Positions 4,768-31,688 of a stretch of 64,000 nt of DNA are shown piece after piece. Within the stretch, counting starts at the first letter, position 1. Every line of letters starts with the position of its first letter. The DNA is taken from assembly GCA_023227985.1 (NCBI GenBank), contig JALOCB010000003.1, positions 5,260 to 69,259 on the forward strand, given 5' to 3'. This stretch comes from Candidatus Omnitrophota bacterium. Lineage in GTDB: Bacteria; Omnitrophota; Gorgyraeia; Gygaellales; Profunditerraquicolaceae. The notes under the pieces are model-generated. The model searched no databases. It saw only the letters and a program-made list of their open reading frames with translations, and was not told where the DNA came from. The position numbers and the translations under genes are program-made.

Positions 4768-4773
4768 CATTCT

Positions 4774-4828
4774 CAAGACCCGGTCTTGCATCCCAATGAG
4801 TCCTAATGGGTTGCAAGACCGGGTCTTG
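4774..4828. repeat. Paired palindromic motif CAAGACCCGGTCTTG ... CAAGACCGGGTCTTG. It forms a ~22-bp stem hairpin 7 nt after the stop of giant gene 1.
   Basis: caagacccggtcttgca-tcccaatgagtcctaatggg-ttgcaagaccgggtcttg. The arms are reverse complements, and each 15-mer is itself a near-palindrome. No U-tract follows. Confidence 0.75.
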
Positions 4829-4925
4829 AACATGTCTTTATATGAATAAGATAAATCCGTTTCAATTTAAAAACCGCAACAGGCAGAAGTTGTAATTTAA
4901 TTCAAATCATCAACCGGAGGGAAAA

Positions 4926-7900
4926 ATGTTCGTAAGGTTATCCCAAAACAACCTGTTCAGGAAGATCGTCGGCATTCTTATTCTTTTACAATTTTCAGCC
5001 GGTTTTGCCGTGATTAGGGGTTATGCTGCTCCCGGAAATTTGCGGCCTGCCGCCGTCAAACAGGATGGTTCCCGGTCCGGGACTATCCAGAATTCGCTTG
5101 ACGCGGCCAGCCTGGATAAGGTTATAAAAACCCCGGTCATTCATAAGGACGGCGGTATAACCGGCCAGGATGTTTTTAAGAATATCCTTGGCGAATACCG
5201 TGTTTCCTCCACGATAAACAATCTCGCTTTCGGGACGTTCGTCCAGGGGCAGATCGACCTTAGTTCGGTTCAGAACCGGGAAGCGCTGGTCAATAATTTC
5301 GGGGAGATTAAGAGCAAAGATCGTTTTTTTACCCTTGAATACGCGGGAATTCCGCTTGCCCTGGTCAAGAAGGCCGAAACCGGAGAAATTACCGTCAAGA
5401 AAGTAGTCGAAGACATTGCTTCGATCCCGCTCAACATCCTTTCCGACAATGCCGAAAAGCTCAAAACCGAAGGTGTTACTTCCTCGGATATCCTGGTCCG
5501 CGATTTTCTTATCCTTGAAAAAAGGTCGCGTATCGACATCACTCAGTGCATGACCGTAGAGTTTGGCGAGCTGCGCGACTACGTATACAATCTGGCTAAA
5601 AATGTCGGCCAGGAAAAGGCACTGGAGATGGCATCGGCGTTTGCGGGTAAGGCTACCGTTGACGAGGCTATGGCGGAAGTCGGCGAGAAAGCTAAGCAGT
5701 TAGGCCGCGACCAAGCGAAGGACACAGGTCTGGCGCTGGCCGGCGGTAAGGGTTTGAGCCTTTCGGTCATGAGCCGCGTGGTTGACGTGCCGCCTGGTTT
5801 GAACGTTACTACTACCGCGTATTTTAAGTTCGTCAAAGATAATAAACAGGTCTGGGAGAAGATCTTTAATGAGCTGCAGACCTTGGATACTATGGATGAC
5901 CAGAAGCGCGACGTTGTCACTTCGGAGATCCGCGATGTCATTAAAAGCGCGCCGATACCCGAAGACATCAAGGCTGAGGTAACAGCAATGTACCACCAGC
6001 TAAGCGTTATCCGTTTTCTTGCCGGTAAACCTTCGCCCGCTCCGGTGGCTGTCCGCTCTTCCGGCACCAAAGAGGATATTCACGTTAAAACCTGGCTGCC
6101 GGTTTCCACCGGTTCCCAGGCCGGCCAGTCGGATACATTCCTTAATGTTAAGGGCGAACGGGATGTCCTGGATAAATTACGCGCCGATTGGGCGTCTTTA
6201 TTTACCGATCGCGCGGTCAGCTACCGTGATGACGCCACCTTCTTGCAGTTCTCTGGAGCCATCGATTTTAACGGTAAGACTTCTCAGGATGTCTATTGGG
6301 GGATCGTGGCGAAGCTTCGGGAATACTCCAAGAAACTGGATAAGCCTGAATATAACGTGTACGCTGACTTAATGAGTAAAGTCACCAGCCCTAACCCTGG
6401 GTCGGTGAGCCTGATGAACGCCATGGAGGAGATCCTGAGACAGGAATCGAATCCGGAGATGTCCAATGCCCTTGCCGTTCTGAAGAAGAAAGCAGAGGAG
6501 GTTGTGCATCCCGAACAGATCGGTATCGACGTTGTGATCATGCAGATGGCTAAGAGTTATCTTGCCGGCGTGCTTTTTACCGTCAATCCGGCGACCAAGA
6601 TGGCCGGTGTGGCCCAGTCGTTATACAAGTCATGGTATATGGGTGATGATTCGCTCGTGTACCGCGACGCGAAGACCGATATTATCCAGGGAACCAGGCC
6701 CATAGTGGTGAGCTTTGATGTGGCCTTCGGCTACGGCGAGAACGTAGTCGGCGGCAAGGTAAACCCGGACAAGTTCATTATGGGCACCTACGACGGCGAG
6801 AGCTGGTTTGTTATCGAGAAAAGCAAAGGCAATAAACTTATTCAGATGAAGGACGTGGAAGAAGTCATCGATCTCCTCAAAGACAAGATATCGGAAAAGG
6901 GCCAGCGGCAGCTCGCTATGACCGTGAAAGACGCGATCGCGTATGATGAGGTCGGCAAGCGGATCAACGGCATTATGGCGACCAAACTCTACGGTATCAA
7001 GTATCTTAAGGCGCTTGAGGGTAAAGAGGAAAGCGATAAAGACAAGAAGGCCCGCGTACAGGCTATCGCCAATGAGATTGCCGACATGGTCAAGAATAAG
7101 GTTTCCGAGGATGAAGTTGTCGCGTTCATCAAGGGTAACTTTGAGGTCGTTAACCGGAAGGGCTATAAAGGCATTCAGGAAATGGCGCTTTCGGGAGTGG
7201 TCAGGGAAGTGTTTGAGAAAGTCCAACAGGCCCAGGCTGAGACCGACCGGGGTATGTTTAAACTCTCAAAGCAGCTCGGCGATATGGGAAAGGCCGATAC
7301 GCTTATCCATATGATCAAGGAGGTTTGGGAGAATAAGGAATTTACTCTTTCCGACCGCCAGGCGATTCTTGACAAACTGAACCTTACCAACCAGGAATTG
7401 CGTAATATGAGTTACCTTATCCGCGCGCTGGTGGATAATAGCTTTACTTCAAATTATGAGACTACTTTAACCCACCAGGATACCTTTACTATGACCGATG
7501 ATCAGGCCCAGTATGTGGCGCGTATGGGTTGGGCGATCACCGAATATTATAAGGATGCCCGAGATATAGAGTATGCCATCGAGATAGATAAAACCGCTTC
7601 TTCCGACAAAGCGGTGAGGCTTTACGTTGTGGACGACCTGGGCAATGTCCAGGGAATGGACAATAATGGCAACCTGGTAACGGTGAAGTCCGAAAAGGAT
7701 AAAGCGCGTATAAAAGAAGCGAAGCTGCGCCTGTATAACGTGCAGGCCCGTCCGTATACCGCGGAATACTTGAAGGTGGATGTAATGCGCGCCCGGACCG
7801 AAGCGGATGAAAAGTGGCTTGAGGAGAATTCTCCTAAAGCGATTGCCAGCGGGACTAAGGGAGAGAACGCGACGCAGGGTTATGTGCTGGTGTTCGATCC

Positions 7901-10900
7901 TAACAAAGACGTTGCCTGGCACGCGGACCAGATCCGTCGTTTGAAAGCCGGAGATTTTACTGCGGAGGAAAAAGCCCAGATCATGGCTATGGGGTTTAAT
8001 CCCGAAGAGTATGGTTCAGGCAAAGAAAAGCAATTGTCGGTTATTCTTTATCTGCTTGAAGCTGACCCGAATCATGATCCGATCATGCGCCTGGTTGATT
8101 CGGTTGTTACTATCCGCGGCGGCGATACCTGCCACGCGGCTATCTTTTGCCGTGAACAAGGGATCCCTGCGGTCACCGGCGCGGGCAAGGTTATACTCAA
8201 CGGCCAATTGCTTAAGACCGGTGACGCGGTTACCGTTGATGCTAATAACGGGAATATTTACGAAATGCCCGCTGATGCCGGAGCGCGCATTCCGATCAAC
8301 TACGTGAAATTCAAGATTAAACCGTATGGCATCCCCGGCGACGACGACAATATGCCGTATCCGGGCATCGGCCAGATCATCGCCGCGGCAAGTGCCGCTC
8401 AGCAGAACTCGCCTATTATGCTTGCGGTTGACGCGGTCGGTAACTCGCTGACCCGCGCCGAGTTCAAAGGCGAAGAGATCGGTATCAACGTTTACGCCGG
8501 CTATGGCCATTATCTTTTACAGCAGATCAAGGCCGGAAAAATAAAGGAGCCAGTGAGGGTGCGTGTCCAGGAATTGATCCAGGGCAAGGTTCCCGGCGCA
8601 AAGAGGTTCGTGGACAATATTGAAAATGTTATGGCAGGCGCTTTTGCCAAGGATCCCGCCGCGCGTTCGGCATATCGCGACATTATGGGTAAGGATTTCA
8701 ATAAGGCGGATAGCCTGCAATTGCTGGAGTTTTTCGATTTGAAGAGCGACATTGAGCTGTATGGATTGGATGCGCTTAAACTGGTAAAACAGCAGGTTGA
8801 TATTCTTGATCTCGTTCCCCGGCTTCCGGAGAATATGTATCAGACGCTTGAATATCTTTATGGCGCCACTCAGCGCAGGCTCAACTATGATTATAATATT
8901 ATCGCCGATCTTCAGAACCATCCGTGGATACTGAAAGAAGTCGATTCTAAACTCGCGGAAAAGGGTTACGCGACGTTCAAGGAATACATCACTAACGAAT
9001 TCCTGTATTTTTACAATTTGATGGGTTTTACCATTGCGCCCGATCAGACCGCCAAGAACAGGGCTTACGATTTCGCCCAGGATAAGATCCGCGGCATGCC
9101 CGGTTCCGAGGTTTTTTCCTGGCCCGGAGTCAATCCGTTGGTCGGTTTGCGCGGTACGTCGTTGGAGATCGAGGCCTTTGACGAAGATTTCGGCGGCAAT
9201 CAGCTGGTATTGGATTTTCTTTTTGATTCCGTGATCCAGGCGCACCAGAATACCGGTAACCAAGCCTGGTTTTATGTGTTTGTCCGTTCTTCCCGGGAGT
9301 TAGAGACCCTGGATAAGATCATTGAGCACAAGGCTAAGCAGACCGGGAAGCTTCCGAAAGAGATCGGGATCATGATCGAAGTTCCCAGTGCCGCTTTGGT
9401 GGCTGATGAGCTTGCTGTTAAGATGTCCGAGATGGAGAAAAAATATAAGAAGTATGGCGTTGAGCATACTTTCTTTTCCTTCGGCACTAACGACTATTCG
9501 CATCTTGCTGGTATGGGTGACCGTGAAGACCCGCGAATGAAACTCAAGATTATGGATCCCGCAGCGATCGAAGCGATCGGCGAGATGAAAGCAGCGGGGT
9601 ATTATTATGATGATGCTGCTAAAGTGCTTCCGTTGATTGATGAAGGCGCTGATGTTATGCAGCAGCTTATGGAAACAGTGGTTGCTGCGGCTAATGGTTC
9701 AAGCGTGGCTACCTCGCTTTGCGGCGAGGCGATCACCGCCCTGGTTAACCGCGGGGATTATGAGACCGCAGGCAAGATAATGGCGCTTCTGGATTCTTTC
9801 GGCGTGAGCATGATGAAAGTCCGCCTCGCAGCTTCAATGACGCGCGTGGACACCATGGCGGCTACCAAAGGGATCACCATTCCGGAAGCCGGACGTTCGA
9901 TCCTGTTCGATTTGTCTGCCGGCGAGGTGAAACAGAAAAAGGGCGTCATCAAGGGCGAGATAATATTCGTTGATAATGCCGATGATCTCGTCCCGAACGT
10001 CCTTAAAGGCCTTCAGGGTCCGGAGCTGACGAAAAAGAAAGAGATGTTCAAGCTCCAGAGCCTGGAAAACGCCCGTTCGACTATGCGTACCTTCAATAAG
10101 ATCGTAATTATCACTAAAAACCTCGTTGCTCAGCAGGAGCCTGAGTTGGTCGCGGAGATGGGCAAAGCCGCATTCAGCAAGTTTGTCAATGACGGCCTGC
10201 TTAAAGATATCGGTAATGGGCAGTATGTCTGGACGAATCTGGGTGTAAAGACGGAGAAGTTCAACCAGGAATTGACAATTCAAGGTTTCTCTGAAAAAGA
10301 ACGTAAAGCTATTGAAGGTTTGTGGCAGAAGGCCTGGGATAACAGCATTGAAGGGCTTGAGCGCCGCGGAATTGATTGGGATGATCTACAATATGCCAAG
10401 GCTATAATCGTTGATGCGGACGTTAACCTTGATGGCTGGGATGTGTTCCGCAAGGACAAGAGTATTATTCCGACCCGTATCAAGGCTACGGTCAAAGGTA
10501 TAAGCTCCCGCCGTGCGGAGTTAGAAGGGCAATTGGCAACTATAGATTACGCCGCTAAGAAGGTCTACAAGGATTTTCTCAGCGTGGAAAAGATCGCTGC
10601 CGTCCTGCGCAGTCTTCCTATCCCAGCGGAAAAGCCTATGATAACTACGCAATCGGCTGTCGCGGAGAACGCCAACAGTGTATACCAGAAGATCGGGTAT
10701 CATCCTAAGCTCCTTCTTGCCTATGAGCGGAATGCTGTGAATGAACTTGGAAAGATATTCGAGGAATATGTAGGCAAGCTGGTTGAAGAAGTTGAAAAAG
10801 TTACTCAGGAGACCGACGTTCAGAAACGCGTATGGCTTTTACAGAAACTGCAGAATAAAGTTGGCGGGCTTGCGGAACCGATGATCAAATCGTTTATGAG

Positions 10901-12698
10901 CGATGTGCTTTCCGAGGCCATGCGCACAGGTGCGGTAACGCTGCCGGATAACTGGAACAAGAAGCTTTGGGAGGCCTATCGCAGCGACCTGGAAAGCGAG
11001 ATCAGTAAGATCCTTAACGGAAAGACGGTTGAGCAGTATTTTATCGCGCAGTTCAGCGAACAGATGAAGGAAGTGCTCTCCGCCAACAAAGGGGCATTGG
11101 TTGTCCATCTTTTGGGAAGCCTCAACTGTGTTGATTTCTTTAATATGAAAGGCGGTTTCCTGGTTGAACAGGTCAATCCCAACCCTGATTACGGCATTCT
11201 TGGAGCGGCGCGCGCAATAGGGGATATGTGGGAGATAAACCGCATGGAATTGTCCGCTTTTAAGGCGGTATGGGATAATCTGCCGGTTGACCAGCGCGGT
11301 AATTTTGGCCTGCAGATCACCAATCTCAAAGGCACCCAGTCCGGCGCGGTGGTGATCGGCTGGCGTAATATTCTGAAACAAACCGGTATTATCCCGGGGC
11401 AAGACGGTTTGCAGGTTGGCGTCAATATCGTCACTCCGGCGGATAGCATCGCTGCGGATAAGTATTTTGAGTACTTTAATACGCTCGGAAGCGGGTTAAG
11501 TTTTATCTCATATGATGCGTTGAAGCTTGGCGCTGCCTGGGCCGGCGTGGATATTTTTTGGAAGGAATGGAGGAGGCTGGCTAAGGAAGATGAGTTGTTG
11601 AGGTTCGGCGTCATGACCGGCTGGATGGCGGAAGCCAAGGCTCTGAGGTTCGGCGGCAAAGTCCTTTCCTTTGATATTTCTGACGAAGCCAAACAGACTG
11701 ACGGCGGCGCTGAGGTTGTGCCTTACCGGGTAGTGGTGGAGAATCTCTTCCGGGGGATCATTAAGAAATATGATGCTTTGGATAACGGCCAAGCTCTTTC
11801 TCTCGAAAAAGAAGAGTTGGAGGCAATACTCTGGATCTTGAATTCTTCTCCTTTTGAGAATATGTCAAGCCCGTTTGCCGCGATCAAGAGTATGAAGAAT
11901 ATCAGGAATGTGATCGAAAGGCTCAGCGATGACCAAAAGAAGGCCCTAAGTGTACTTTCACAGGGCTTGGTTTTTGTCAATCACGGGCTGGATAAAAAGG
12001 TGGCGGCATTGCTCGTAGACAAGAAGTTGCTCGACACCGCATATGAATCCGACACGGCGGTATATAAAGGGTTGAACAGCGGTTTTGACAGCTTCGCCAA
12101 TGCCTTGAAAGAGGTTAAGAATGCCGAGGGCGCTTTAGTGGTTAGCGCAAATGCTGTGTTGAATAACGCCGGAACGCTGAGAGTCCTGAGAGAAATAAAA
12201 GAAACCGGGCTGACCTTGGAAATAATCGTCCGGGCTGATACGGAAGATCAGGTGAATAAGCTGATTGCCCTTCGGGCAGACGAAGTCGCGACTATCCAGG
12301 CCAAGCGGCTGTCAGTTGTGCTCAGCGGCTTGAAGAACGCGGGTATAACCGATGGCAAGATAGTGGTGATTAAAGGCAAAGAAGAAGTAAAAGACGCGGT
12401 AGAAGCCGGCGTAAAGGTCGTAGAGATCTCCATGCCTAAAACAGAGGAGTCCAGTATCAACTCCATGGCCTTAGTTGCGGCAAAAGCGGTAATCATAGTG
12501 TTAAATGGTGAAGAAACGGTTGCCGCGCAATACCGGGAAATGGCGGTAAAATACGCCGCAGATAACAGCGTAACCTCTGAAGAATTGGATGATCTGCAGG
12601 ACCTGACCAGCCAGATCTCGGAGATACCCATGGCCAAGGTCAGCGAAGAAGTCGCTAAGGCGCAGGCCACTTATGAGGAGACTATAAGCAAGATATAA
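4926..12698 (+). CDS. Giant 2590-aa protein: N-terminal hydrophobic anchor/signal + pyruvate phosphate dikinase/PEP synthase-like enzyme + ~900 aa unassigned region + conserved C-terminal module
   Basis: RBS ggaggg lies 6 nt upstream of the ATG. N-terminus has the hydrophobic stretch IVGILILLQFSAGFAVI followed by RGYAAPGNLRPAAVK. PPDK N-terminal domain: GGKGLSLSVM...VPPGLNVTTTAYFKFV and VAVRSSGTKED...NVKGERDVLDKLRADWASLFTDRAVSYR. Phospho-His swivel motif: RGGDTCHAAIFCREQGIPAVTG. PEP-utilising TIM barrel: IGIMIEVPSAALVADE...FFSFGTNDYSHLAGMGDRED. The C-terminal ~190 aa are closely related to the C-terminus of the previous gene. Confidence 0.8.
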   Translation: MFVRLSQNNLFRKIVGILILLQFSAGFAVIRGYAAPGNLRPAAVKQDGSRSGTIQNSLDAASLDKVIKTPVIHKDGGITGQDVFKNILGEYRVSSTINNLAFGTFVQGQIDLSSVQNREALVNNFGEIKSKDRFFTLEYAGIPLALVKKAETGEITVKKVVEDIASIPLNILSDNAEKLKTEGVTSSDILVRDFLILEKRSRIDITQCMTVEFGELRDYVYNLAKNVGQEKALEMASAFAGKATVDEAMAEVGEKAKQLGRDQAKDTGLALAGGKGLSLSVMSRVVDVPPGLNVTTTAYFKFVKDNKQVWEKIFNELQTLDTMDDQKRDVVTSEIRDVIKSAPIPEDIKAEVTAMYHQLSVIRFLAGKPSPAPVAVRSSGTKEDIHVKTWLPVSTGSQAGQSDTFLNVKGERDVLDKLRADWASLFTDRAVSYRDDATFLQFSGAIDFNGKTSQDVYWGIVAKLREYSKKLDKPEYNVYADLMSKVTSPNPGSVSLMNAMEEILRQESNPEMSNALAVLKKKAEEVVHPEQIGIDVVIMQMAKSYLAGVLFTVNPATKMAGVAQSLYKSWYMGDDSLVYRDAKTDIIQGTRPIVVSFDVAFGYGENVVGGKVNPDKFIMGTYDGESWFVIEKSKGNKLIQMKDVEEVIDLLKDKISEKGQRQLAMTVKDAIAYDEVGKRINGIMATKLYGIKYLKALEGKEESDKDKKARVQAIANEIADMVKNKVSEDEVVAFIKGNFEVVNRKGYKGIQEMALSGVVREVFEKVQQAQAETDRGMFKLSKQLGDMGKADTLIHMIKEVWENKEFTLSDRQAILDKLNLTNQELRNMSYLIRALVDNSFTSNYETTLTHQDTFTMTDDQAQYVARMGWAITEYYKDARDIEYAIEIDKTASSDKAVRLYVVDDLGNVQGMDNNGNLVTVKSEKDKARIKEAKLRLYNVQARPYTAEYLKVDVMRARTEADEKWLEENSPKAIASGTKGENATQGYVLVFDPNKDVAWHADQIRRLKAGDFTAEEKAQIMAMGFNPEEYGSGKEKQLSVILYLLEADPNHDPIMRLVDSVVTIRGGDTCHAAIFCREQGIPAVTGAGKVILNGQLLKTGDAVTVDANNGNIYEMPADAGARIPINYVKFKIKPYGIPGDDDNMPYPGIGQIIAAASAAQQNSPIMLAVDAVGNSLTRAEFKGEEIGINVYAGYGHYLLQQIKAGKIKEPVRVRVQELIQGKVPGAKRFVDNIENVMAGAFAKDPAARSAYRDIMGKDFNKADSLQLLEFFDLKSDIELYGLDALKLVKQQVDILDLVPRLPENMYQTLEYLYGATQRRLNYDYNIIADLQNHPWILKEVDSKLAEKGYATFKEYITNEFLYFYNLMGFTIAPDQTAKNRAYDFAQDKIRGMPGSEVFSWPGVNPLVGLRGTSLEIEAFDEDFGGNQLVLDFLFDSVIQAHQNTGNQAWFYVFVRSSRELETLDKIIEHKAKQTGKLPKEIGIMIEVPSAALVADELAVKMSEMEKKYKKYGVEHTFFSFGTNDYSHLAGMGDREDPRMKLKIMDPAAIEAIGEMKAAGYYYDDAAKVLPLIDEGADVMQQLMETVVAAANGSSVATSLCGEAITALVNRGDYETAGKIMALLDSFGVSMMKVRLAASMTRVDTMAATKGITIPEAGRSILFDLSAGEVKQKKGVIKGEIIFVDNADDLVPNVLKGLQGPELTKKKEMFKLQSLENARSTMRTFNKIVIITKNLVAQQEPELVAEMGKAAFSKFVNDGLLKDIGNGQYVWTNLGVKTEKFNQELTIQGFSEKERKAIEGLWQKAWDNSIEGLERRGIDWDDLQYAKAIIVDADVNLDGWDVFRKDKSIIPTRIKATVKGISSRRAELEGQLATIDYAAKKVYKDFLSVEKIAAVLRSLPIPAEKPMITTQSAVAENANSVYQKIGYHPKLLLAYERNAVNELGKIFEEYVGKLVEEVEKVTQETDVQKRVWLLQKLQNKVGGLAEPMIKSFMSDVLSEAMRTGAVTLPDNWNKKLWEAYRSDLESEISKILNGKTVEQYFIAQFSEQMKEVLSANKGALVVHLLGSLNCVDFFNMKGGFLVEQVNPNPDYGILGAARAIGDMWEINRMELSAFKAVWDNLPVDQRGNFGLQITNLKGTQSGAVVIGWRNILKQTGIIPGQDGLQVGVNIVTPADSIAADKYFEYFNTLGSGLSFISYDALKLGAAWAGVDIFWKEWRRLAKEDELLRFGVMTGWMAEAKALRFGGKVLSFDISDEAKQTDGGAEVVPYRVVVENLFRGIIKKYDALDNGQALSLEKEELEAILWILNSSPFENMSSPFAAIKSMKNIRNVIERLSDDQKKALSVLSQGLVFVNHGLDKKVAALLVDKKLLDTAYESDTAVYKGLNSGFDSFANALKEVKNAEGALVVSANAVLNNAGTLRVLREIKETGLTLEIIVRADTEDQVNKLIALRADEVATIQAKRLSVVLSGLKNAGITDGKIVVIKGKEEVKDAVEAGVKVVEISMPKTEESSINSMALVAAKAVIIVLNGEETVAAQYREMAVKYAADNSVTSEELDDLQDLTSQISEIPMAKVSEEVAKAQATYEETISKI
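12130..12698 (+). repeat. Copy B of the duplicated C-terminal-module segment (paired with 4190..4767)
   Basis: See copy A. The two copies can be aligned codon by codon. Confidence 0.7.
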
Positions 12699-12704
12699 TA
12701 TATT

Positions 12705-12758
12705 GAGGCCGGGTCTTGTAACCGATTCAAACGCAAGGGAATACAAGACCGGGTCTTG
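12705..12758. repeat. Second occurrence of the (G)ACCGGGTCTTG palindromic motif pair, 7 nt after the stop of giant gene 2 and abutting the RBS of giant gene 3
   Basis: gaggccgggtcttgtaaccgattcaaacgcaagggaatacaagaccgggtcttg. Same core motif and same two-copy architecture as at 4774..4828. Confidence 0.7.
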
Positions 12759-12778
12759 ATAATTAGAGGAGGGAAAAG

Positions 12779-15700
12779 ATGTCCAGGCCGTCTAAAAACA
12801 ATAGTATCTCTAAAATAATTTCCGGCGTTGTGATCGCGCAATTTATCATGAGCAGTATAGCCCTGCGCGGTTATGCCGGCACAGACAATTTAAGGCCGGC
12901 TCCGGTCAAAGATTCCGACCGGATAAGCGTTCTGGCCGATGAATTGCAGAAAGACGGCGGCAAACTGGCTGAATGGATCCATATCTTAGCGGAAAATACA
13001 ATTGTGGGCGATGCCGCTAAAGGTTCGAACGTCGGCATGGTCATACGGCTGGGAAAGCTTGTTGAAGAGAATATATCCGGGTCCATATTAGGGCATTCGG
13101 CAAACCGGAAGGCGTATATAAAGGAAGTGGGCGCTCAAATCGCTGAAGGGCTGCGTTTGACCGGAATGGAAGAAAAGGCGATCGCGGCTGCCAGCCGCAA
13201 GATAGCTTTTTCCAGATACGATAACATCATGAATCACCGGATCCAGGCGATGTTTCAAGCAGGGATCAGGGAGATCTGCCTTTGCGTAGGCAGTGATAAG
13301 GATAAGCTCACCGTTGAGGAAGAGATATCGGATGTGCTTGCGCAGTTGCAGGTGTCTTTTGCCGATGTCTCTTTGGAACAAATAAAAAAGATAATTTTCC
13401 ACGTGGCTTGGGAGCCTGCGGCGAATATCGGCACCGGTACTGCTGTCGGTCCGGAAAAGATCAAGCTGGTCCATCAGGCTATCTATGAATTCTTTGCCGA
13501 GAAGTATAATACACCCTCCGGGTATATCGGCGATGTTTGGGGGAAGTCATTGAAAATACTTTACGGCGCAAGCGTTGACGGAAAGAACGTCGACGGCATA
13601 ATGGCGGTGAAAGAGGATAAAGGCATGGCTTTGGTGCACGGCGTGTTATTCGCTTCTTCGGGTAAAAAGGCCGATGGCTTCCTGGCTGTGGCCGAGGGGG
13701 TTAGCCGCGCCGCGGAAAGGGATAACGCCCAGTATGTCTGTTTTGTCAACCTTAAGGAATTCGCCAGGGCTGAGAAAGATGAGGCTTTGACTTTTGTCGT
13801 CGAGATCGTCCGGGCCATTGCTTTAGGACGGATCGATCCCCGGCATACCATTCTGGCGATCGCTGACCAGGATGTACATCTAAAGGAGTGGCAGGACGCG
13901 ATCGTCGGCAGAAGCGTTTCGATGTCGGACGGCGGATACGCGTATGTTGAAGGAACGAACTTTAAGGACAAGAATGTGCTTTTTCGCCCGGATTATAACA
14001 CTCCGGCTTCGGTAAAGACCGATGATCAGGGTAATGTTTTGTCGATCAAAATATCCGACGCAAGCAGGATCGTTGATTCCTTCCCGGCTTTGACCAAGAT
14101 CCTGAAAGATAAGCCAAAACATGTGGTTGTCGTTGTCCATTTCGAACCTAAGGTGTTGAATCCCGCGACCGGTAAGAAAGACAAGAAAAATCTGTCTACT
14201 AAAGTCACAGCGGACAAACTTAAAGAATTGCTGCCGGCGGAATATAAAGATAAGGTAATATTCCTGGCTGATTCAGTCAATGACAATGGGATTGCCGCCG
14301 AAGCAATGCGGGCTATAGAAAGTTATACTGATTCCGAGATCATCGTATTGGAAAATATCCGTTTTGCCAAAGGCGAAAAGAAAGGTGCCCCCGAGCTTAA
14401 TGATCCTAAAGGTGTAGCTTTACGCAAACAGCTTTCAGGATTAGCGGACGAATATGTGGTGGATGCCTTGGGTAATATTCATCGCGCCCACGCATCAATG
14501 CTGCCTTTGCCCGGGGTGCATAAAGTCATGGGCAGTCTTGTGGAAAAAGAGATTAAAGTGTTCAACCGGATACTTAACCCGGCGCATCCTTATGCCGGGG
14601 TTAACGGCGGTAATAAGGTTGAAGATAAAGTGGATACCATGGATGTGTCTTTGTCGACGATGCAGGAAGGCGACGCGATCATCATCGGCGGGGCTATGGC
14701 CTACACTTTTTTAAAGGCGCAGGATCCAACATTGAAATTGGGCAAATCACTTGTTCAGGCGGATAAAGTTGATCTGGCTAAGACTATACTTGAGAAGGCC
14801 GCCCGGAAGAAGGTGCGGATAATCCTTCCAGTGGACCATCGCATCTCGGATAAACTCGCTCCCGGAGCAGCAGAATTGGTTACTGAGGGGCTGGAAGTGC
14901 CGGATGGGTACATGGCGGTAGATATCGGACCCAAGACTGAAAAAATAGTCGCCGAGGTCTTAAGTAATGCCCAGACCGCTTTTTGGAACGGCCCAATGGG
15001 CGCGTTCGAGGATGAGGCTGGTGGTTTTAATAAGGGGACTTATACGGTTGCCAGGGAACTGCAGAAAATGGGCAGGTCCGGACGCCTGGCCGGTATCGGC
15101 GGCGGGGAGACACGTATGGCAGCAATTAAGGCCGGGGTTACCGATGCTGACGGCGTGTTCATGTCCAGCGGCGGCGGTTCCACGCAGGAATATTTCGCCA
15201 AGAAAGGCAATCTCCCGGTGATCAAGAATCTGGAGAATGACGAAACCGCCCAGAAAAATCTCGTCCTCGCGGGGAAATTGGGGGTAGAACCCGCGGATCT
15301 GGCGCGTTTTGAAGCGGCAGACAGCAGTATTTATAATGCCTTGGGAGATAAACTTTTCAACGGCTATATATCTCAGGTCAGAAGGTTGCTTCCCAGGTTT
15401 TCGACAGGCCAGAAATTAAACGGCGCTCTGTCCAAAGCAGAGGTCTCTGCGGAGGTGATTAAAGATTCGCGCGGAAACAATACTGTCCGGGCAACTTTAA
15501 AGATCGGGGATATTGTTACTGTCGGCGAAGTCCCTGCAGGCGCTTCCAAAGGGGCAGCTGAGGCTTTTGCTTTTCCGCCGAAGGAAATAGATAGGGCGAT
15601 CGCCAACGTGGCGAAGATCCAGGAGATACTTAAGAACAGCGGCCTGGATATAAGCAAACACAGCGATCTGCGCAAGACGGAACAATTGATCATTGCCGCG

Positions 15701-17302
15701 GCCGGTGAAAACTTCGCGACACTGGGCGCGAACGCCACAGTCCCTATTTCCTGGGCCTTGTGGAGGATGGCGGCAGCGTTGAATAATATGGAACTCTGGG
15801 AATACATCCGGATCAATGAGCCGGGAGTTGTCGGTAATGATCCGGTTTATTTCTATATGAACATATATAACGGCGGGCTGCACGCTTCCGGAGGCGACGC
15901 TTCGGTATTGGGTACAGTTTGGACCGAATTCCAGGAGATGCTGATCGTGCCCGTGGGCGCTAAAACTCACGCCGAAGGCGTGGCTATGGGAGATAAGATC
16001 GACCAGGAATTGAAGAAAATACTGAAAGGTAAATTCGCGGAAGCGGATATAATGCGTAAAGATGAAGCTGGTTTCGCGGTCAAAGGCCTGGGAAAAAGCG
16101 AAGACGCGATCGCTTATGTGGTACAGGCGATCAGGAACGCCGGCTATGAGCCCGGTAAAGACGTAAAGCTGGCTTTGGATGTCGCCGCGACCTCTTTCTA
16201 CGACGAGAAAGAGAATATATACAAGTTCCAGGGCCAGAAATTGACCTCAGCCGAGATGGTCGATTTTTACGTCAAACTGGTAAAGCAATATGACGGCCTG
16301 TTCCTTTCTATAGAAGACGGCCTGGCTGAAGAAGATTGGCAGGGATGGGTAGAGCTAACCGCGGCTATGAAAGAAAAAGGCGTCCTGACTATAGGCGATG
16401 ATCTGTACGTTACCCAGCACGGCCGGTTGAACAAAGGGCTGGCGATGAACGCGGCTACAGCGATCCTGATCAAGGTTAATCAAAATGGGACCCTGGGCGG
16501 AACTATCGATGTTATGAAGACCGCCAAGGCCAATGGCATTAAAGCTGTGGTATCGCACCGTTCCGGAGAAACTCTGGATGCCGGGATCGCGGATCTGGCT
16601 TACGCAACCCGGGCGTTCGGGCTTAAAACCGGGGATCCTCAACCTTTGGTTGATTTCCAGAATCCGAACGAACTGGTGCGCCGGGCTAAGTATGACAGGA
16701 TGATCGAGATCCAGAAACAAGAAAACATCCAAAATGACCCGGCATTATCCAGGCCTAAAGCGCTGTTGATCAATGCGGATTTTTTCAAATCCGGCGCGGT
16801 TAAGAACGCTGTGGCGGAAATAGCGAGATTAAACGGGAATATCAATGTGGTGATCTACGGAGATAATGCCGAAAAGCTAAAGACGCTGGTAGGAAATCCC
16901 GATATTATCGCGGTGCGGAGTTTGACTGCAGCTGTCTCTGAAATAGCTAACCGCGGGGTAAAATCTTCTCAGGATGCCGTTATTTTGACGCCTATGCCGT
17001 ATAGCTCGGAAACGTTTATTGTTCAAATCCGCAGCGGAGAAATAAGCACGCTGGCTTTGGCCAAGGCGGTAAAGCAGTTATTCAAGAACGACCGGATCAC
17101 CGCGGCTATGGATGAATTCTATAAATCGCTGGTTGATAACAAAGTGGTTTCCGAGCAGGACTACATAAATACAAGGGAAAAAATCCTAACGGATCTGATC
17201 GACGGTGTTTACAACCTGGGTGAGATTAAGTTGACAAAACAGGTATCTGATGTTATAGAAAAGGAGCGGCTGGTAACCGAAGAGTTCGTGGGTAAAGTGT
17301 AA
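12779..17302 (+). CDS. Giant 1507-aa fusion protein: N-terminal anchor + triosephosphate isomerase + phosphoglycerate kinase + enolase domains
   Basis: RBS aggagg lies upstream of the ATG. N-terminus has IISGVVIAQFIMSSIALRGYAGTDNLRPAPVK, sharing the RGYA..NLRPA.VK motif with the previous gene. TIM domain: GHSANRK, AWEPAANIGTGTA, ILYGASVDGKN. PGK domain: ENIRFAKGEKKG, GNIHRAHAS, GGAMAYTFLKA, VDIGPKT, FWNGPMGAFE, GIGGGET. Enolase domain: IKDSRGNNTV, MLIVPVGAK, LALDVAATSFY, LSIEDGLAEEDW, IGDDLYVTQ, ILIKVNQNGTL, VVSHRSGETLD. Confidence 0.8.
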   Translation: MSRPSKNNSISKIISGVVIAQFIMSSIALRGYAGTDNLRPAPVKDSDRISVLADELQKDGGKLAEWIHILAENTIVGDAAKGSNVGMVIRLGKLVEENISGSILGHSANRKAYIKEVGAQIAEGLRLTGMEEKAIAAASRKIAFSRYDNIMNHRIQAMFQAGIREICLCVGSDKDKLTVEEEISDVLAQLQVSFADVSLEQIKKIIFHVAWEPAANIGTGTAVGPEKIKLVHQAIYEFFAEKYNTPSGYIGDVWGKSLKILYGASVDGKNVDGIMAVKEDKGMALVHGVLFASSGKKADGFLAVAEGVSRAAERDNAQYVCFVNLKEFARAEKDEALTFVVEIVRAIALGRIDPRHTILAIADQDVHLKEWQDAIVGRSVSMSDGGYAYVEGTNFKDKNVLFRPDYNTPASVKTDDQGNVLSIKISDASRIVDSFPALTKILKDKPKHVVVVVHFEPKVLNPATGKKDKKNLSTKVTADKLKELLPAEYKDKVIFLADSVNDNGIAAEAMRAIESYTDSEIIVLENIRFAKGEKKGAPELNDPKGVALRKQLSGLADEYVVDALGNIHRAHASMLPLPGVHKVMGSLVEKEIKVFNRILNPAHPYAGVNGGNKVEDKVDTMDVSLSTMQEGDAIIIGGAMAYTFLKAQDPTLKLGKSLVQADKVDLAKTILEKAARKKVRIILPVDHRISDKLAPGAAELVTEGLEVPDGYMAVDIGPKTEKIVAEVLSNAQTAFWNGPMGAFEDEAGGFNKGTYTVARELQKMGRSGRLAGIGGGETRMAAIKAGVTDADGVFMSSGGGSTQEYFAKKGNLPVIKNLENDETAQKNLVLAGKLGVEPADLARFEAADSSIYNALGDKLFNGYISQVRRLLPRFSTGQKLNGALSKAEVSAEVIKDSRGNNTVRATLKIGDIVTVGEVPAGASKGAAEAFAFPPKEIDRAIANVAKIQEILKNSGLDISKHSDLRKTEQLIIAAAGENFATLGANATVPISWALWRMAAALNNMELWEYIRINEPGVVGNDPVYFYMNIYNGGLHASGGDASVLGTVWTEFQEMLIVPVGAKTHAEGVAMGDKIDQELKKILKGKFAEADIMRKDEAGFAVKGLGKSEDAIAYVVQAIRNAGYEPGKDVKLALDVAATSFYDEKENIYKFQGQKLTSAEMVDFYVKLVKQYDGLFLSIEDGLAEEDWQGWVELTAAMKEKGVLTIGDDLYVTQHGRLNKGLAMNAATAILIKVNQNGTLGGTIDVMKTAKANGIKAVVSHRSGETLDAGIADLAYATRAFGLKTGDPQPLVDFQNPNELVRRAKYDRMIEIQKQENIQNDPALSRPKALLINADFFKSGAVKNAVAEIARLNGNINVVIYGDNAEKLKTLVGNPDIIAVRSLTAAVSEIANRGVKSSQDAVILTPMPYSSETFIVQIRSGEISTLALAKAVKQLFKNDRITAAMDEFYKSLVDNKVVSEQDYINTREKILTDLIDGVYNLGEIKLTKQVSDVIEKERLVTEEFVGKV

Positions 17303-27684: not shown

Positions 27685-29303
27685 AGATAAAAAACGGAAC
27701 GCAAGCGGTAATGTCGTTTTTTGCGGTATTGATTTCTATGTGTTACGCGGTTTCTGCCTTTTCCCAGCCGCAGCCGGCTTGCTGCGGGGATCTGCTTAAG
27801 CGGGCAAATTCTTCCGTGAACAGCCGGGAGCTTTTTGTTGATTTTCAGTCCTGCCAGGCCGAATACCTTAAGGATGGACGTTACAGCAACTTCGTGGATT
27901 TCTTAAAGGGCCTGGGACAGAAGAAAAAGGGCCTGGAGCCGCTCATTAATTATTTTACCGGCTTGACCCGTTATCTGCAGATGAGATTCCTGGAAGAAAA
28001 ACAGGCCTGGGATGAATATTTCAGCCAGGGCAATAATTACCGCGACGAGATCTCCGCGTCCCTGGATAAAGCGGTTAAATCCACTGACGCGAATGAGGCG
28101 TTGAATATTCACGCCCGGCTGATATTGTGGCGGTTCCATTATGACCAGCAGGATGTGTTCGCGGAACAATCCCTGACGGATCTGTTTAACTCCGCGATCG
28201 AATACGCAAAGACCGGGCAGGACCTGTCTGTGGTGAAAAAGACCGCGGACACCCTGATTTCTTACGGGGAGAGGTCAAAAGCGGCCCAGTTATACAAGCT
28301 TTATATTAACACGGTGATCGCCGCCGGGACAAAAGCCGATGATATAAAAGCTTTGGCTTTAGGGTTTTTAAATGAGGGCAATATTGAATTGGCCCAAACC
28401 GCCTTTGACAGCTATATAAAGAAGGTGATCGAGACCTTCACCGCTGAAGAAAAAGCCGCGGCTTTGAGAGAGGTGGCGCTTTTATTCGCCTGGAAGGAGC
28501 CGGAGGCTAAGGACGGTTTATACGCGGAGAAGATATTCAAAGCGATGGAAGAGGGGTGCGGTAAAGACGCATTTGATGAGGAGCTTTTGTATCTAAGGGC
28601 GTATAACCTGGAGCGGGTCAAGGAATACTCGTCCGCCAAGGATGTTTATATAGAACTTTTGACCCGTTTCCCGCAGACCCAATACGCGCAAACCTGCGCT
28701 TATAAGATCGGGTTGATCGCGTTATACATCGATAGGGATGAAAGCACAGCCAGGCAGTATTTTGAAAAGGGCGTTCAGGGCGATCCTTCCGGATCATCGG
28801 GGCTTTCCAGCTTATATCAATTGGGGGTATTGACCCAGTGGGAAGATGAGCTTACCCGGGCCCAGGGTTATTATGATAAACTGATCGAAAACGCGCAAGG
28901 CAGCGGTTTTTCGGATATCGTTGCCTTGACCAAAGACAGGCAAGCCGAGATCAACAGCGAAAAACCTTTGGATAACAACATCAAGATCATGCTGGACCTG
29001 GCTTTGAAGCCGGATAATTCCAATCTGGATATGTCTAAGGTGCAGACTAAAGTTTCTCCGTCAGTGTCCGGGATAGACGGGGAATTTACCATAACCTCCA
29101 GCGCGACCTCGCCGCAAAGCGGATGTATGCAGGTGGCTTTGGACTATATATGGGCGGGTGATCTGGGAAAAATAACCCCTTCCGCCGACTCGTCCGCGTT
29201 AACCGTTGCTTATTCCGATCCCGGGACAAAGATAGTCGGTCTTGTAGTTATGTGCCCCTATGGGGTATTGGACAGGAGCATTGATATAATCGACGTTGAA
29301 TAA
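27681..29303 (+). CDS. Hypothetical secreted helical-repeat (TPR-like) protein
   Basis: Signal peptide MSFFAVLISMCYAVSAFSQP. Helix-rich repetitive composition. Last gene of the sugar-utilisation cluster. Confidence 0.45.
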   Translation: MKIKNGTQAVMSFFAVLISMCYAVSAFSQPQPACCGDLLKRANSSVNSRELFVDFQSCQAEYLKDGRYSNFVDFLKGLGQKKKGLEPLINYFTGLTRYLQMRFLEEKQAWDEYFSQGNNYRDEISASLDKAVKSTDANEALNIHARLILWRFHYDQQDVFAEQSLTDLFNSAIEYAKTGQDLSVVKKTADTLISYGERSKAAQLYKLYINTVIAAGTKADDIKALALGFLNEGNIELAQTAFDSYIKKVIETFTAEEKAAALREVALLFAWKEPEAKDGLYAEKIFKAMEEGCGKDAFDEELLYLRAYNLERVKEYSSAKDVYIELLTRFPQTQYAQTCAYKIGLIALYIDRDESTARQYFEKGVQGDPSGSSGLSSLYQLGVLTQWEDELTRAQGYYDKLIENAQGSGFSDIVALTKDRQAEINSEKPLDNNIKIMLDLALKPDNSNLDMSKVQTKVSPSVSGIDGEFTITSSATSPQSGCMQVALDYIWAGDLGKITPSADSSALTVAYSDPGTKIVGLVVMCPYGVLDRSIDIIDVE

Positions 29304-29322
29304 CCGCCTGCCACGGTAGGTA

Positions 29323-29362
29323 AAACAAAAAACCCGCTCAAAATTCCGAGCGGGTTTTTTGT
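29323..29362. terminator. Bidirectional rho-independent terminator
   Basis: aaaacaaaaaacccgctcaaaattccgagcgggttttttgtt: an A-tract, a 9-bp GC-rich stem, and a T-tract. It serves the + strand TPR gene and the - strand tRNA-fMet. Confidence 0.8.
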
Positions 29363-29408
29363 TGGAAATTGCGGGGGCCAGATTTGAACTGACGGCCTTC
29401 AGGTTATG

Positions 29409-30033
29409 CTTGCTACTACAGCTTTAGCTGCTCCGCTATCAAGCGGATTCGTAGTCTGGACTATATCTTGACCAACTATCGTTGGCCCCTGCCGTTTAGT
29501 CTCTACACTTTTCTCCGTTGCCGGAGACTTAGCTCGGTATTACCTTGACTTGCGTCGAGGGTTTCACCGAATTTGACAGGATATCCTTCAACCGTTACCG
29601 GTTGAGGAGCCCTTCGGACAATAAACTCCATCGTTGCCTGTACAGTGCGGACATCGGTTTGCGCTGTCGTTTGCCGCTTTCGACTAAACTGATGGTGCTG
29701 CCGAATTTGGTAAAGACAGAGCAGGGGACGATGTAGAACACATTCAGGGGTTCGATTACAGCACCGCAAAATCGAAATCATCCGCGTCATATCTCGCCCG
29801 CAACATCCTTCGTCTGTTCGTCTTGGTCCGTCTGACATCGACACAATACATGTCGTTTTTCTGGTCGAACCAAGCGCTTTTGACTTGAATGCGCAGAAGT
29901 TTACCATCCAGGTCGATCGCCAGATCATAAGGGAGGCGATCCCCGAACGGTTTGAGCACCCTGAACCCTTGTTTCAGGAGTTCAGTGATGACGGCAGATT
30001 CTGCGATGTCAGATTTGAGTTTTTTATCCATTG
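29409..30033 (-). ncRNA. Group I intron (IC3-like) inserted between U33 and C34 of the tRNA-fMet anticodon loop
   Basis: Exon ends with U at -1 and the intron ends with G (omega G). The core elements GUCAAAUUCGGUGAAACC, CCGAGCUAAG, GUGUAGAGACUAAACGGCAGGGG (R/P7) and AAGAUAUAGUCCAGAC (S/P7') closely match the Azoarcus tRNA-Ile and cyanobacterial tRNA IC3 introns. A 91-codon ORF occupies the 5' part of the intron. Confidence 0.8.
29756..30031 (-). CDS. Intron-encoded ORF (91 aa), putative PD-(D/E)xK-like homing endonuclease
   Basis: The AUG is at intron nucleotides 3-5 (CA-AUGGAUAAAAAA), in frame with the upstream exon. Sequence MDKKLKSDIAESAVITELLKQGFRVLKPFGDRLPYDLAIDLDGKLLRIQVKSA..., with E...PYD...IDLDGK / IQVK resembling a restriction-endonuclease-fold core. 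The analogous cyanobacterial tRNA-fMet intron encodes the PD-(D/E)xK enzyme I-Ssp6803I. The six-frame ORF 29756..30061 is this ORF spuriously extended into the tRNA exon. Confidence 0.45.
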   Translation of the reverse strand: MDKKLKSDIAESAVITELLKQGFRVLKPFGDRLPYDLAIDLDGKLLRIQVKSAWFDQKNDMYCVDVRRTKTNRRRMLRARYDADDFDFAVL

Positions 30034-30126
30034 AGCCTGACGAGCTACCGGACTGCTCCACCCCGCGAATCTATTATGAAAGAACAGGTATATTTTACTC
30101 TTATTTTAAAGAGTTCAAAGCCTTAT

Positions 30127-31688
<1,562 letters not shown>

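Follow-up and report, generated by a model that had tools for sequence, protein, structure and literature searches.

What lies between the two halves of the initiator tRNA gene found in a 64-kb stretch of DNA from a Candidatus Omnitrophota metagenome-assembled genome (MAG), and can a gene divided in this way still serve its host? The window, as the whole 64-kb stretch is called here, carries on its minus strand a tRNA-fMet gene whose exons are separated by 625 nt. Very probably, the initiator tRNA gene is split by a group I intron of subgroup IC3, the endonuclease encoded in loop L1 of that intron was broken recently, and what remains is an immobile, splicing-competent passenger.

The split initiator tRNA gene

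The minus strand from 29250 to 30200 was read directly to establish the layout of exons and intron, which is as follows.

30034..30067, minus strand: tRNA-fMet 5' exon, positions 1-33 plus one extra D-loop base; 34 nt, ending ...GGCU with U33 last
29409..30033, minus strand: group I intron, IC3 type, at tRNA position 33/34; 625 nt, delimited by ARAGORN with introns allowed, the Rfam model RF00028 and identical junctions in 76 loci
29369..29408, minus strand: tRNA-fMet 3' exon, C34 to A73, CCA not encoded; 40 nt, starting CAUAACC

On this strand the 5' exon (30067..30034) reads CGCGGGGUGGAGCAGUCCGGUAGCUCGUCAGGCU and the 3' exon (29408..29369) reads CAUAACCUGAAGGCCGUCAGUUCAAAUCUGGCCCCCGCAA; the intron begins CAAUGG and ends ...GCAAG, its last base being the omega-G at 29409. 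Joined, the exons give a 74-nt molecule that ARAGORN calls as tRNA-Met(CAT), with a cloverleaf and the anticodon CAU. With introns allowed, ARAGORN recovers the split gene and its 625-nt intron; under default settings it misses the gene and reports a tRNA-Thr as the sole tRNA of the 64-kb window. The original prediction, made from the letters of the DNA, had placed the interruption between U33 and C34, with these exon coordinates, a U before the 625 nt and a G at their end. The direct reading and ARAGORN bear this out, so that the split gene itself is directly established. The prediction had added that the only initiator tRNA visible here depends on self-splicing; this is reasonable as far as the 64 kb of the window go, ARAGORN having detected no further tRNA-Met in them.

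Relatives were found in 330 genomes in a scan of species-representative genomes, and the locus-level comparison used throughout covers the best 80 of these 330, from which 76 loci could be parsed and 75 introns aligned. All 76 parsed loci have tRNA-fMet split identically, with the 5' exon ending ...GGCU, the intron ending in G and the 3' exon starting CAUAAC. ARAGORN calls of Leu(caa), Ser(cga) and Pro(tgg) in some related loci were rejected as boundary ambiguity on tRNA-fMet (CT followed by CAA...).

The spliced tRNA agrees with E. coli tRNA-fMet at 67 of 74 positions. The C1xA72 mismatch, noticed already in the original prediction, is present both in the sequence and in the ARAGORN drawing, and so is A11:U24, an initiator-specific pair, within a D-stem of GAGC/GCUC. 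The anticodon stem, UCAGG/CCUGA, has A:U at 29:41, leaving two G:C pairs in place of three consecutive ones (29:41, 30:40, 31:39). A29:U41 is common to many Omnitrophota initiator tRNAs (L002-L052, with stems UCAGG or CAAGG). Position 1:72 stays mismatched in them, as CxA or CxU in several loci.

Structure and covariation of the ribozyme

The window was scanned with Rfam at the gathering thresholds, and two matches were returned, the tRNA-Thr and Intron_gpI (RF00028). The latter, at 29633..29437 on the minus strand, scores 61.6 bits (E = 3.4e-13) against a gathering threshold of 50 bits and covers model positions 1-253, the full model, yet it spans only the final ~200 nt of the intron. A match above threshold is what the original prediction of an IC3-type group I intron had called for, and the three motifs that it quoted from the intron, GUCAAAUUCGGUGAAACC, GUGUAGAGACUAAACGG and AAGAUAUAGUCC, are all present. 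The ribozyme is made up of the following elements.

29608..29612, minus strand: internal guide sequence GGGCU, which makes P1 by pairing with GGCU at the exon end together with intron base +1; U33·G wobble at the splice site
29585..29607, minus strand: P2 hairpin with a GUAA (GNRA) tetraloop, L2; all 9 pairs change on both sides across relatives
29508..29580, minus strand: P3 5' strand (29580..29575), J3/4 and the P4-P5-P6 domain (29571..29508); P3 100% paired with 5 of 6 pairs covarying, P4 98.9% paired
29459..29501, minus strand: catalytic core supported by covariation, comprising P7 5' (29501..29497), P3 3' (29493..29488), P8 (29487..29470), J8/7 and P7 3' (29463..29459)
29413..29454, minus strand: P9 three-way junction of P9, P9a and P9b, supported by covariation; L9b is UAAA here and GAAA in most relatives

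The 75 ribozymes were aligned from the guide sequence to the 3' splice site (alignment A2), and an explicit structure of the window copy (P2, P3, P4, P5, P6, P6a, P7, P8, P9, P9a and P9b) was projected onto the alignment. Standard pairs fill 92.8% of the 4302 cells, compared with 27-44% in controls whose partners were shifted by 1-3 columns. Changes on both sides are seen for 45 of the 60 pairs, and none of 500 shuffles matches any of the observed measures. P3 and P7 form a pseudoknot; P7 is 100% paired, as are P6 and P9b, and one of its pairs occurs as AU, UA, GC and CG, while all seven pairs of P8 covary. A covarying group I fold is therefore directly established.

The guide sequence was assigned on other grounds. 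Its three G's are invariant in all 75 aligned introns and the exon U in all 76 loci, and because both sides of P1 are invariant, covariation is silent on this pairing and cannot confirm it. Short introns that lack the endonuclease gene display the P1 hairpin directly, as in L038, where GGCU is followed by CAAUUUUGGGCUCC; these identify GGGCU as the guide and place the endonuclease open reading frame (ORF) of the longer introns in loop L1. The first stem in the Rfam alignment, on GGAG...CUCC, was rejected, since the short relatives and covariation favour a GGGCU guide followed by P2.

In the window copy all 60 pairs are canonical. It departs from columns conserved at 90% or more at 3 of 93 positions. 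Two of these are the partners of a compensatory U-A pair in P6; the other opens the L9b loop, where the window, L001 and L002 alike have UAAA for GAAA, so that of the peripheral loops L2 (GUAA) is a GNRA and L9b is not. The L9b loop occupies 29423-29426 on the minus strand, and its first base is G in 71 of 75 relatives, mostly as GAAA. To judge by its sequence, the ribozyme core is undamaged in the window.

A broken endonuclease gene in loop L1

The original prediction treated all 625 nt as ribozyme. That part of it must be revised, because the first ~440 nt of the intron are occupied by two stretches of ORF that lie in different frames, 30031..29756 (91 codons, counted from its ATG) and 29741..29595, which together represent a frameshifted endonuclease gene of the I-Ssp6803I family lying in L1. 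The ORF makes up about two-thirds of the intron, and its ATG begins at the third intron base.

29756..30031, minus strand: N-terminal part of the homing endonuclease pseudogene; ATG at 30031, 91 codons, premature TAA at 29758..29756; D36 and Q49-V50-K51 kept
29756..29757, minus strand: site of a 1-nt deletion; CTG TAT ATT in the sister locus L001, CTG TA- ATC in the window, creating an in-frame TAA
29595..29756, minus strand: C-terminal 53 codons of the pseudogene, out of frame; original stop TAA at 29597..29595

With the frame repaired, the ORF encodes 145 residues that match residues 4-140 of PDB entry 2OST (I-Ssp6803I) with E = 6e-46 and positions 1-137 of the 138 in Pfam model PF11645 (PDDEXK_5) with 143.3 bits (cutoff 26.1; E = 6e-42). 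NCBIfam assigns no family to the endonuclease, and NCBI names the ORF 'group I intron-associated PD-(D/E)XK endonuclease'. Both the homology and the disruption of the gene are matters of direct observation. D36 and Q49-x-K51, reportedly the catalytic residues, are invariant in the endonuclease alignment (A1) and are retained in the 91-residue fragment; what the fragment loses is about 40 invariant or near-invariant C-terminal positions, and from this we infer that it is inactive.

The sister locus L001 is syntenic with the window, with an FtsH-like gene, eno and ftsB followed by the split tRNA, and has an intact ORF of 145 codons (P0023) whose product belongs to the same 90% protein cluster as the truncated one. 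Between the two copies of the ORF there are 15 synonymous and 2 nonsynonymous substitutions. So strong an excess (15 of 17) indicates that selection acted on the endonuclease protein until shortly before the deletion, and hence that the break is recent. The T-stems of the two tRNAs, AUGAG/CUCAU in L001 and GUCAG/CUGGC in the window, differ in fully compensatory fashion, and the introns differ at only ~3% of positions.

Protein and ribozyme share sequence at their boundary. The stop codon of the original ORF is the UAA of the L2 GUAA tetraloop, and the end of the ORF overlaps the guide and P2 (29595-29612). In relatives with GAAA or GCAA in L2 the ORF continues into P3-P4 and acquires tails such as ...LSNSVKP..., which are the translated P3-P4 core, CUGUCAAAUUCGGUGAAACC. 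The structure of the RNA thus sets the end of the protein, because the endonuclease stop is the UAA of the L2 loop and translation reads on where the loop is GAAA or GCAA. At the other end, some gene models start at a GTG in the tRNA 5' exon (30031-30061; P0021, P0086 and P0149) and have an artefactual N-terminus, MEQSGSS(S/Q)GS; extensions of the form MEQSGSSQGS-MD... are the 5' exon translated. The 101-residue model deposited for the window locus is one such exon-start artefact.

A probable long-term resident of a conserved locus

The host is directly established, ten proteins of the window being exact matches to Candidatus Omnitrophota MAG proteins. A cyanobacterial origin for the window was considered and rejected, as the 64 kb contain just 8 copies of the HIP1 motif GCGATCGC and the proteins match Omnitrophota MAGs. 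Upstream of the tRNA and on the same strand lie genes for enolase and an FtsB/DivIC-like protein, and the gene for a TPR protein converges from downstream.

A protein search returned 1173 homologs of the endonuclease, those with names being mostly from Omnitrophota. The best 80 genomes of the locus-level comparison are likewise mostly Omnitrophota, including MAGs labelled Planctomycetia or Deltaproteobacteria with synteny of the Omnitrophota type; other labels among them are Bacteroidota, Cyanobacteria, Melainabacteria, Margulisiibacteriota and Patescibacteria. About 57 of the 76 parsed loci carry an intron-borne ORF, which is damaged in only three, the window, L006 and L046, and 19 of the 76 have a short intron of 202-324 nt without it.

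The gene order eno, ftsB, intron-containing tRNA-fMet recurs in 46 loci, and the enolases encoded there share 56-94% identity with the window's enolase; the conserved locus is thus also directly established. When 28 loci are compared with the window, identity of the ribozyme rises with that of the enolase (rho 0.57, p = 0.0015), a rough test since the points are not independent; for the endonuclease the correlation, over the same kind of non-independent points from 28 loci, is weaker (rho 0.41). The original prediction had read an fMet intron in this lineage as a sign of horizontal mobility. Because 46 syntenic loci have such divergent enolases, and because divergence of the ribozyme tracks that of the host, the sequences point instead to a long-term resident at one locus, with occasional gain and loss, and not to a recent arrival. 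The presence of related endonucleases in several phyla suggests older, deeper horizontal transfers.

A scan of metagenomes for the intron-less junction found at least 120 stretches, and among those listed one, L155 (Ga0105164_10037110), is syntenic; the identical 74-nt tRNA without intron was found in none of the at least 120 stretches as listed. L155 has at 1246-2658 eno, ftsB and an uninterrupted tRNA-fMet, in the order seen in the window; between its enolase and that of the Omnitrophota locus L059, identity is 82%. The contig seems to represent the syntenic locus in intron-less form, from within the phylum, in a different Omnitrophota clade from that of the window, and so implies that loss or absence of the intron occurs within Omnitrophota.

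Some loci have a tRNA whose 33/34 intron has no endonuclease gene and which is followed, on the same strand and after 52-98 nt (up to 1.1 kb), by a free-standing, intact I-Ssp6803I homolog of 141-160 residues. Examples are L071 2092-2983 (Nodularia), L064, L070 and L072 (Arcicella), L073 and L074 (Saprospiraceae), L075, L077 and L078 (cyanobacteria), and L038, L039, L051 and L056 (Omnitrophota-type). In L071 the free-standing gene comes after a terminator-like hairpin. A free-standing endonuclease beside its intron-occupied target resembles, by analogy, a proposed step on the way to mobile introns. The Omnitrophota eno-ftsB-tRNA-fMet locus was observed in five states: with an intact endonuclease in L1; with one freshly broken, as in the window; with an intron lacking the endonuclease gene; with such an intron and a free-standing homolog downstream; and without an intron.

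Subgroup and comparison with known systems

Position 33/34 of tRNA-fMet is described as a well-characterized insertion site in Nakagawa et al. 2026 (PMC13011429), and the readable rows of Table S5 of that paper label tRNA-fMet 33/34 introns IC3. Two of these IC3-labelled fMet introns can be aligned with the window ribozyme from end to end, at 74.1% and 77.4% identity over ~190 nt. The ribozyme aligns with a tRNA-Leu IC3 intron from the same table over the core (68% over 163 nt), and with an IB3 tRNA-Arg intron it has only a local match of 65 nt. On the contrast between end-to-end alignment with IC3-labelled fMet introns and the local IB3 match, we accept the IC3 assignment from sequence comparison, as the original prediction had proposed.

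One tabulated case is an Omnitrophota genome, GCF_004102945.1, whose tRNA-fMet 33/34 intron of 252 nt has no endonuclease gene (Nakagawa et al. 2026, Table S5; PMC13011429). Phylum, gene and site are those of the window, as is, in the readable part of the sequence, the layout of guide, P2, P3 and P4. This and the other fMet introns of its kind in Table S5 lack an endonuclease ORF, whereas the window has one, broken. According to the same paper, PF11645 endonucleases in tRNA-fMet introns occur in two Cyanobacteriota genomes only, among 4,934 complete genomes (PMC13011429), and homologues of I-Ssp6803I have been described as generally cyanobacterial (PMC3384342).

The prototype of these elements is the tRNA-fMet intron of Synechocystis sp. 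PCC 6803 (GenBank U10482; PDB 2OST), which encodes the PD-(D/E)XK homing endonuclease I-Ssp6803I and is 655 nt long with an ORF of 150 residues (PMC1995217), compared with 625 nt and 145 residues (repaired) in the window. The two share the host gene, the 33/34 site, the endonuclease family and the D...QxK catalytic motif. They differ in that the window belongs to an Omnitrophota host, has its endonuclease frameshifted to 91 residues, and has A29:U41 in the anticodon stem. We assume that the Synechocystis ORF also lies in L1.

The IC3 intron in tRNA-Ile of Azoarcus sp. BH72, which serves as the structural model for small group I ribozymes of bacteria, presumably shares with the window a small core in the anticodon loop, a short P1, a GNRA-capped P2, the lack of a P5abc extension and a similar J3/4-P4 and P7; we take it to differ in its host tRNA, its insertion position and its lack of an ORF. 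Unlike the Azoarcus intron, the window has a P9 in the form of a three-way junction with a UAAA terminal loop. The IC3 intron of cyanobacterial and plastid tRNA-Leu(UAA) has a related core and is inserted at 34/35, usually without an endonuclease gene.

Proposed mechanism and alternative explanations

If the intron is a splicing-competent passenger, its precursor would be a transcript of ~700 nt ending at a hairpin terminator, for which there is a candidate directly after the tRNA.

29324..29363, minus strand: intrinsic terminator hairpin (A-tract, stem, T-tract); predicted fold -25.7 kcal/mol, z = -6.66

The intron would fold as a P1-P9 ribozyme, with the guide GGGCU pairing with GGCU and U33 held in a U·G wobble. 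An external guanosine would attack after U33, the terminal G (29409) would then enter the G-binding site in P7, and the exons would be ligated to a 74-nt tRNA-fMet to which CCA would be added later. In relatives, the endonuclease would cut the pseudo-palindromic anticodon-stem region of an intron-less tRNA-fMet, with the target sequence ...GCTCGTCAGGCTCATAACCTGAAGG..., and repair would copy the intron in. Once the only target in the population was occupied, selection on the endonuclease would lapse and the gene would decay, giving the state of the window, which corresponds to the decay stage in the life cycle of homing endonucleases; the ribozyme would stay under selection because the tRNA is needed.

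Several points weigh against this account. Splicing itself is something we infer, from sequence. P1 is short, with 5 pairs including two wobbles, and P10 is barely formed in the window copy. A non-GNRA L9b could weaken a tertiary contact in a small clade; UAAA at L9b is also found in two related loci, one of them with an intact endonuclease. A promoter scan found no sigma-70-type promoter upstream of the tRNA, and the gene may be co-transcribed with eno-ftsB. The hairpin after the tRNA was missed by a scan for consensus terminators, probably because its A-tract pairs with its T-tract and leaves no free T-run for the scan to find. A29:U41 replaces one of the three G:C pairs that are regarded as typical of bacterial initiators; as many Omnitrophota loci have it, it looks like a lineage trait rather than damage. 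The accessions in which the truncated endonuclease recurs may not be fully independent assemblies, and a second initiator tRNA could be encoded elsewhere in the genome, of which 64 kb was inspected.

One alternative would make the frameshift a sequencing or assembly error, or have it bypassed in translation, leaving the endonuclease functional and the intron fully mobile. An intact 145-residue version does fall in the same 90% cluster, on four contigs including one of 1.87 Mb, the substitutions between copies are nearly all synonymous, and about 54 of the 57 intron-borne copies in relatives are intact. The truncated product, however, of 91 residues, or 101 from the GTG in the tRNA exon, recurs beyond the window in three deposited NCBI MAG accessions, whose locus tags belong to different series. 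The deletion (TAT to TA) lies outside any homopolymer run, which makes systematic error unlikely, and no slippery heptamer is present there to support programmed frameshifting, so that we regard this explanation as improbable. Still less credible is the view that the split tRNA is a dead remnant, its function served by an uninterrupted tRNA-fMet elsewhere and its splicing dispensable. The extent of genome inspected, 64 kb, leaves room for such a gene, and the decaying endonuclease and the loss of the GNRA loop at L9b are what a remnant might display. Yet the intron-bearing gene stands at the same place in 46 loci across deep divergence, and the ribozyme has evolved under strong purifying and compensatory selection, with every invariant base and pair kept in the window. 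The T-stems of window and sister locus differ by compensatory changes only, as expected of a tRNA in use, and C1xA72, A11:U24 and the gene's own terminator have been kept. We consider a dead remnant highly improbable.

The remaining alternative, recent horizontal acquisition of the intron by the lineage of the window, draws on the spread of related endonucleases among Omnitrophota, Cyanobacteria, Bacteroidota, Melainabacteria, Margulisiibacteriota, Patescibacteria and MAGs labelled 'Deltaproteobacteria'. The intron-less syntenic L155, in a relative of one Omnitrophota clade, indicates that gain and loss do happen, and divergence of the endonuclease follows that of the host only moderately. Set against these are the presence of the intron at the same locus across Omnitrophota with 56-94% identical enolases and the closer correlation between ribozyme and enolase. 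In addition, the nearest relatives of the intron lie in other genomes with eno-ftsB synteny, and a decayed endonuclease argues for long fixation rather than fresh invasion. Recent acquisition is accordingly unlikely, and long residence of the intron, followed by a recent break in its endonuclease, remains the explanation that we favour.

Significance

The element is of the same kind as the Synechocystis intron with I-Ssp6803I, in another phylum and with the endonuclease freshly broken. The novelty implied by the original prediction was overstated: the site is a textbook one, and both the Omnitrophota tRNA-fMet 33/34 intron, tabulated in PMC13011429, and the NCBI name of the ORF were already known. 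What has been less documented is the frequency, outside cyanobacteria, of the form that bears the endonuclease. With relatives in 330 genomes, and the best 80 of these mostly from Omnitrophota, the known host range is widened, although no new kind of element or mechanism is added.

There are practical consequences for annotation. Default tRNA finders miss the gene, and genomes of this phylum will therefore seem to be without an initiator tRNA. Endonuclease models from gene callers can be artefactual as well, beginning in the tRNA exon or running into the ribozyme, and knowledge of the element corrects both kinds of error. The window also catches an endonuclease as it decays within a ribozyme whose function has to be kept up, since the gene that it interrupts is probably essential.

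It is possible, though we put this forward tentatively and lean slightly away from it, that Omnitrophota rather than cyanobacteria are the main natural reservoir of mobile tRNA-fMet introns of the I-Ssp6803I type. If so, the phylum would offer a natural series for testing the cycle of endonuclease gain, decay and loss on an essential single-copy gene, and for testing the proposal that mobile introns arise when introns and free-standing endonucleases combine.

Flanking DNA

In the sister locus L001, ~1.4 kb of extra DNA follows the tRNA (3640-5136), with opposite-strand ORFs of 252 and 192 codons. The 3' end of the tRNA (...CCCCGCAACTTTTA...) is duplicated there at about 3656-3671 and 3719-3735, which suggests that a small element integrated at this point. 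Far from the tRNA gene, on the plus strand of the window, three consecutive very long ORFs of 1587, 2590 and 1507 codons (4-17302) fill the first 17 kb.

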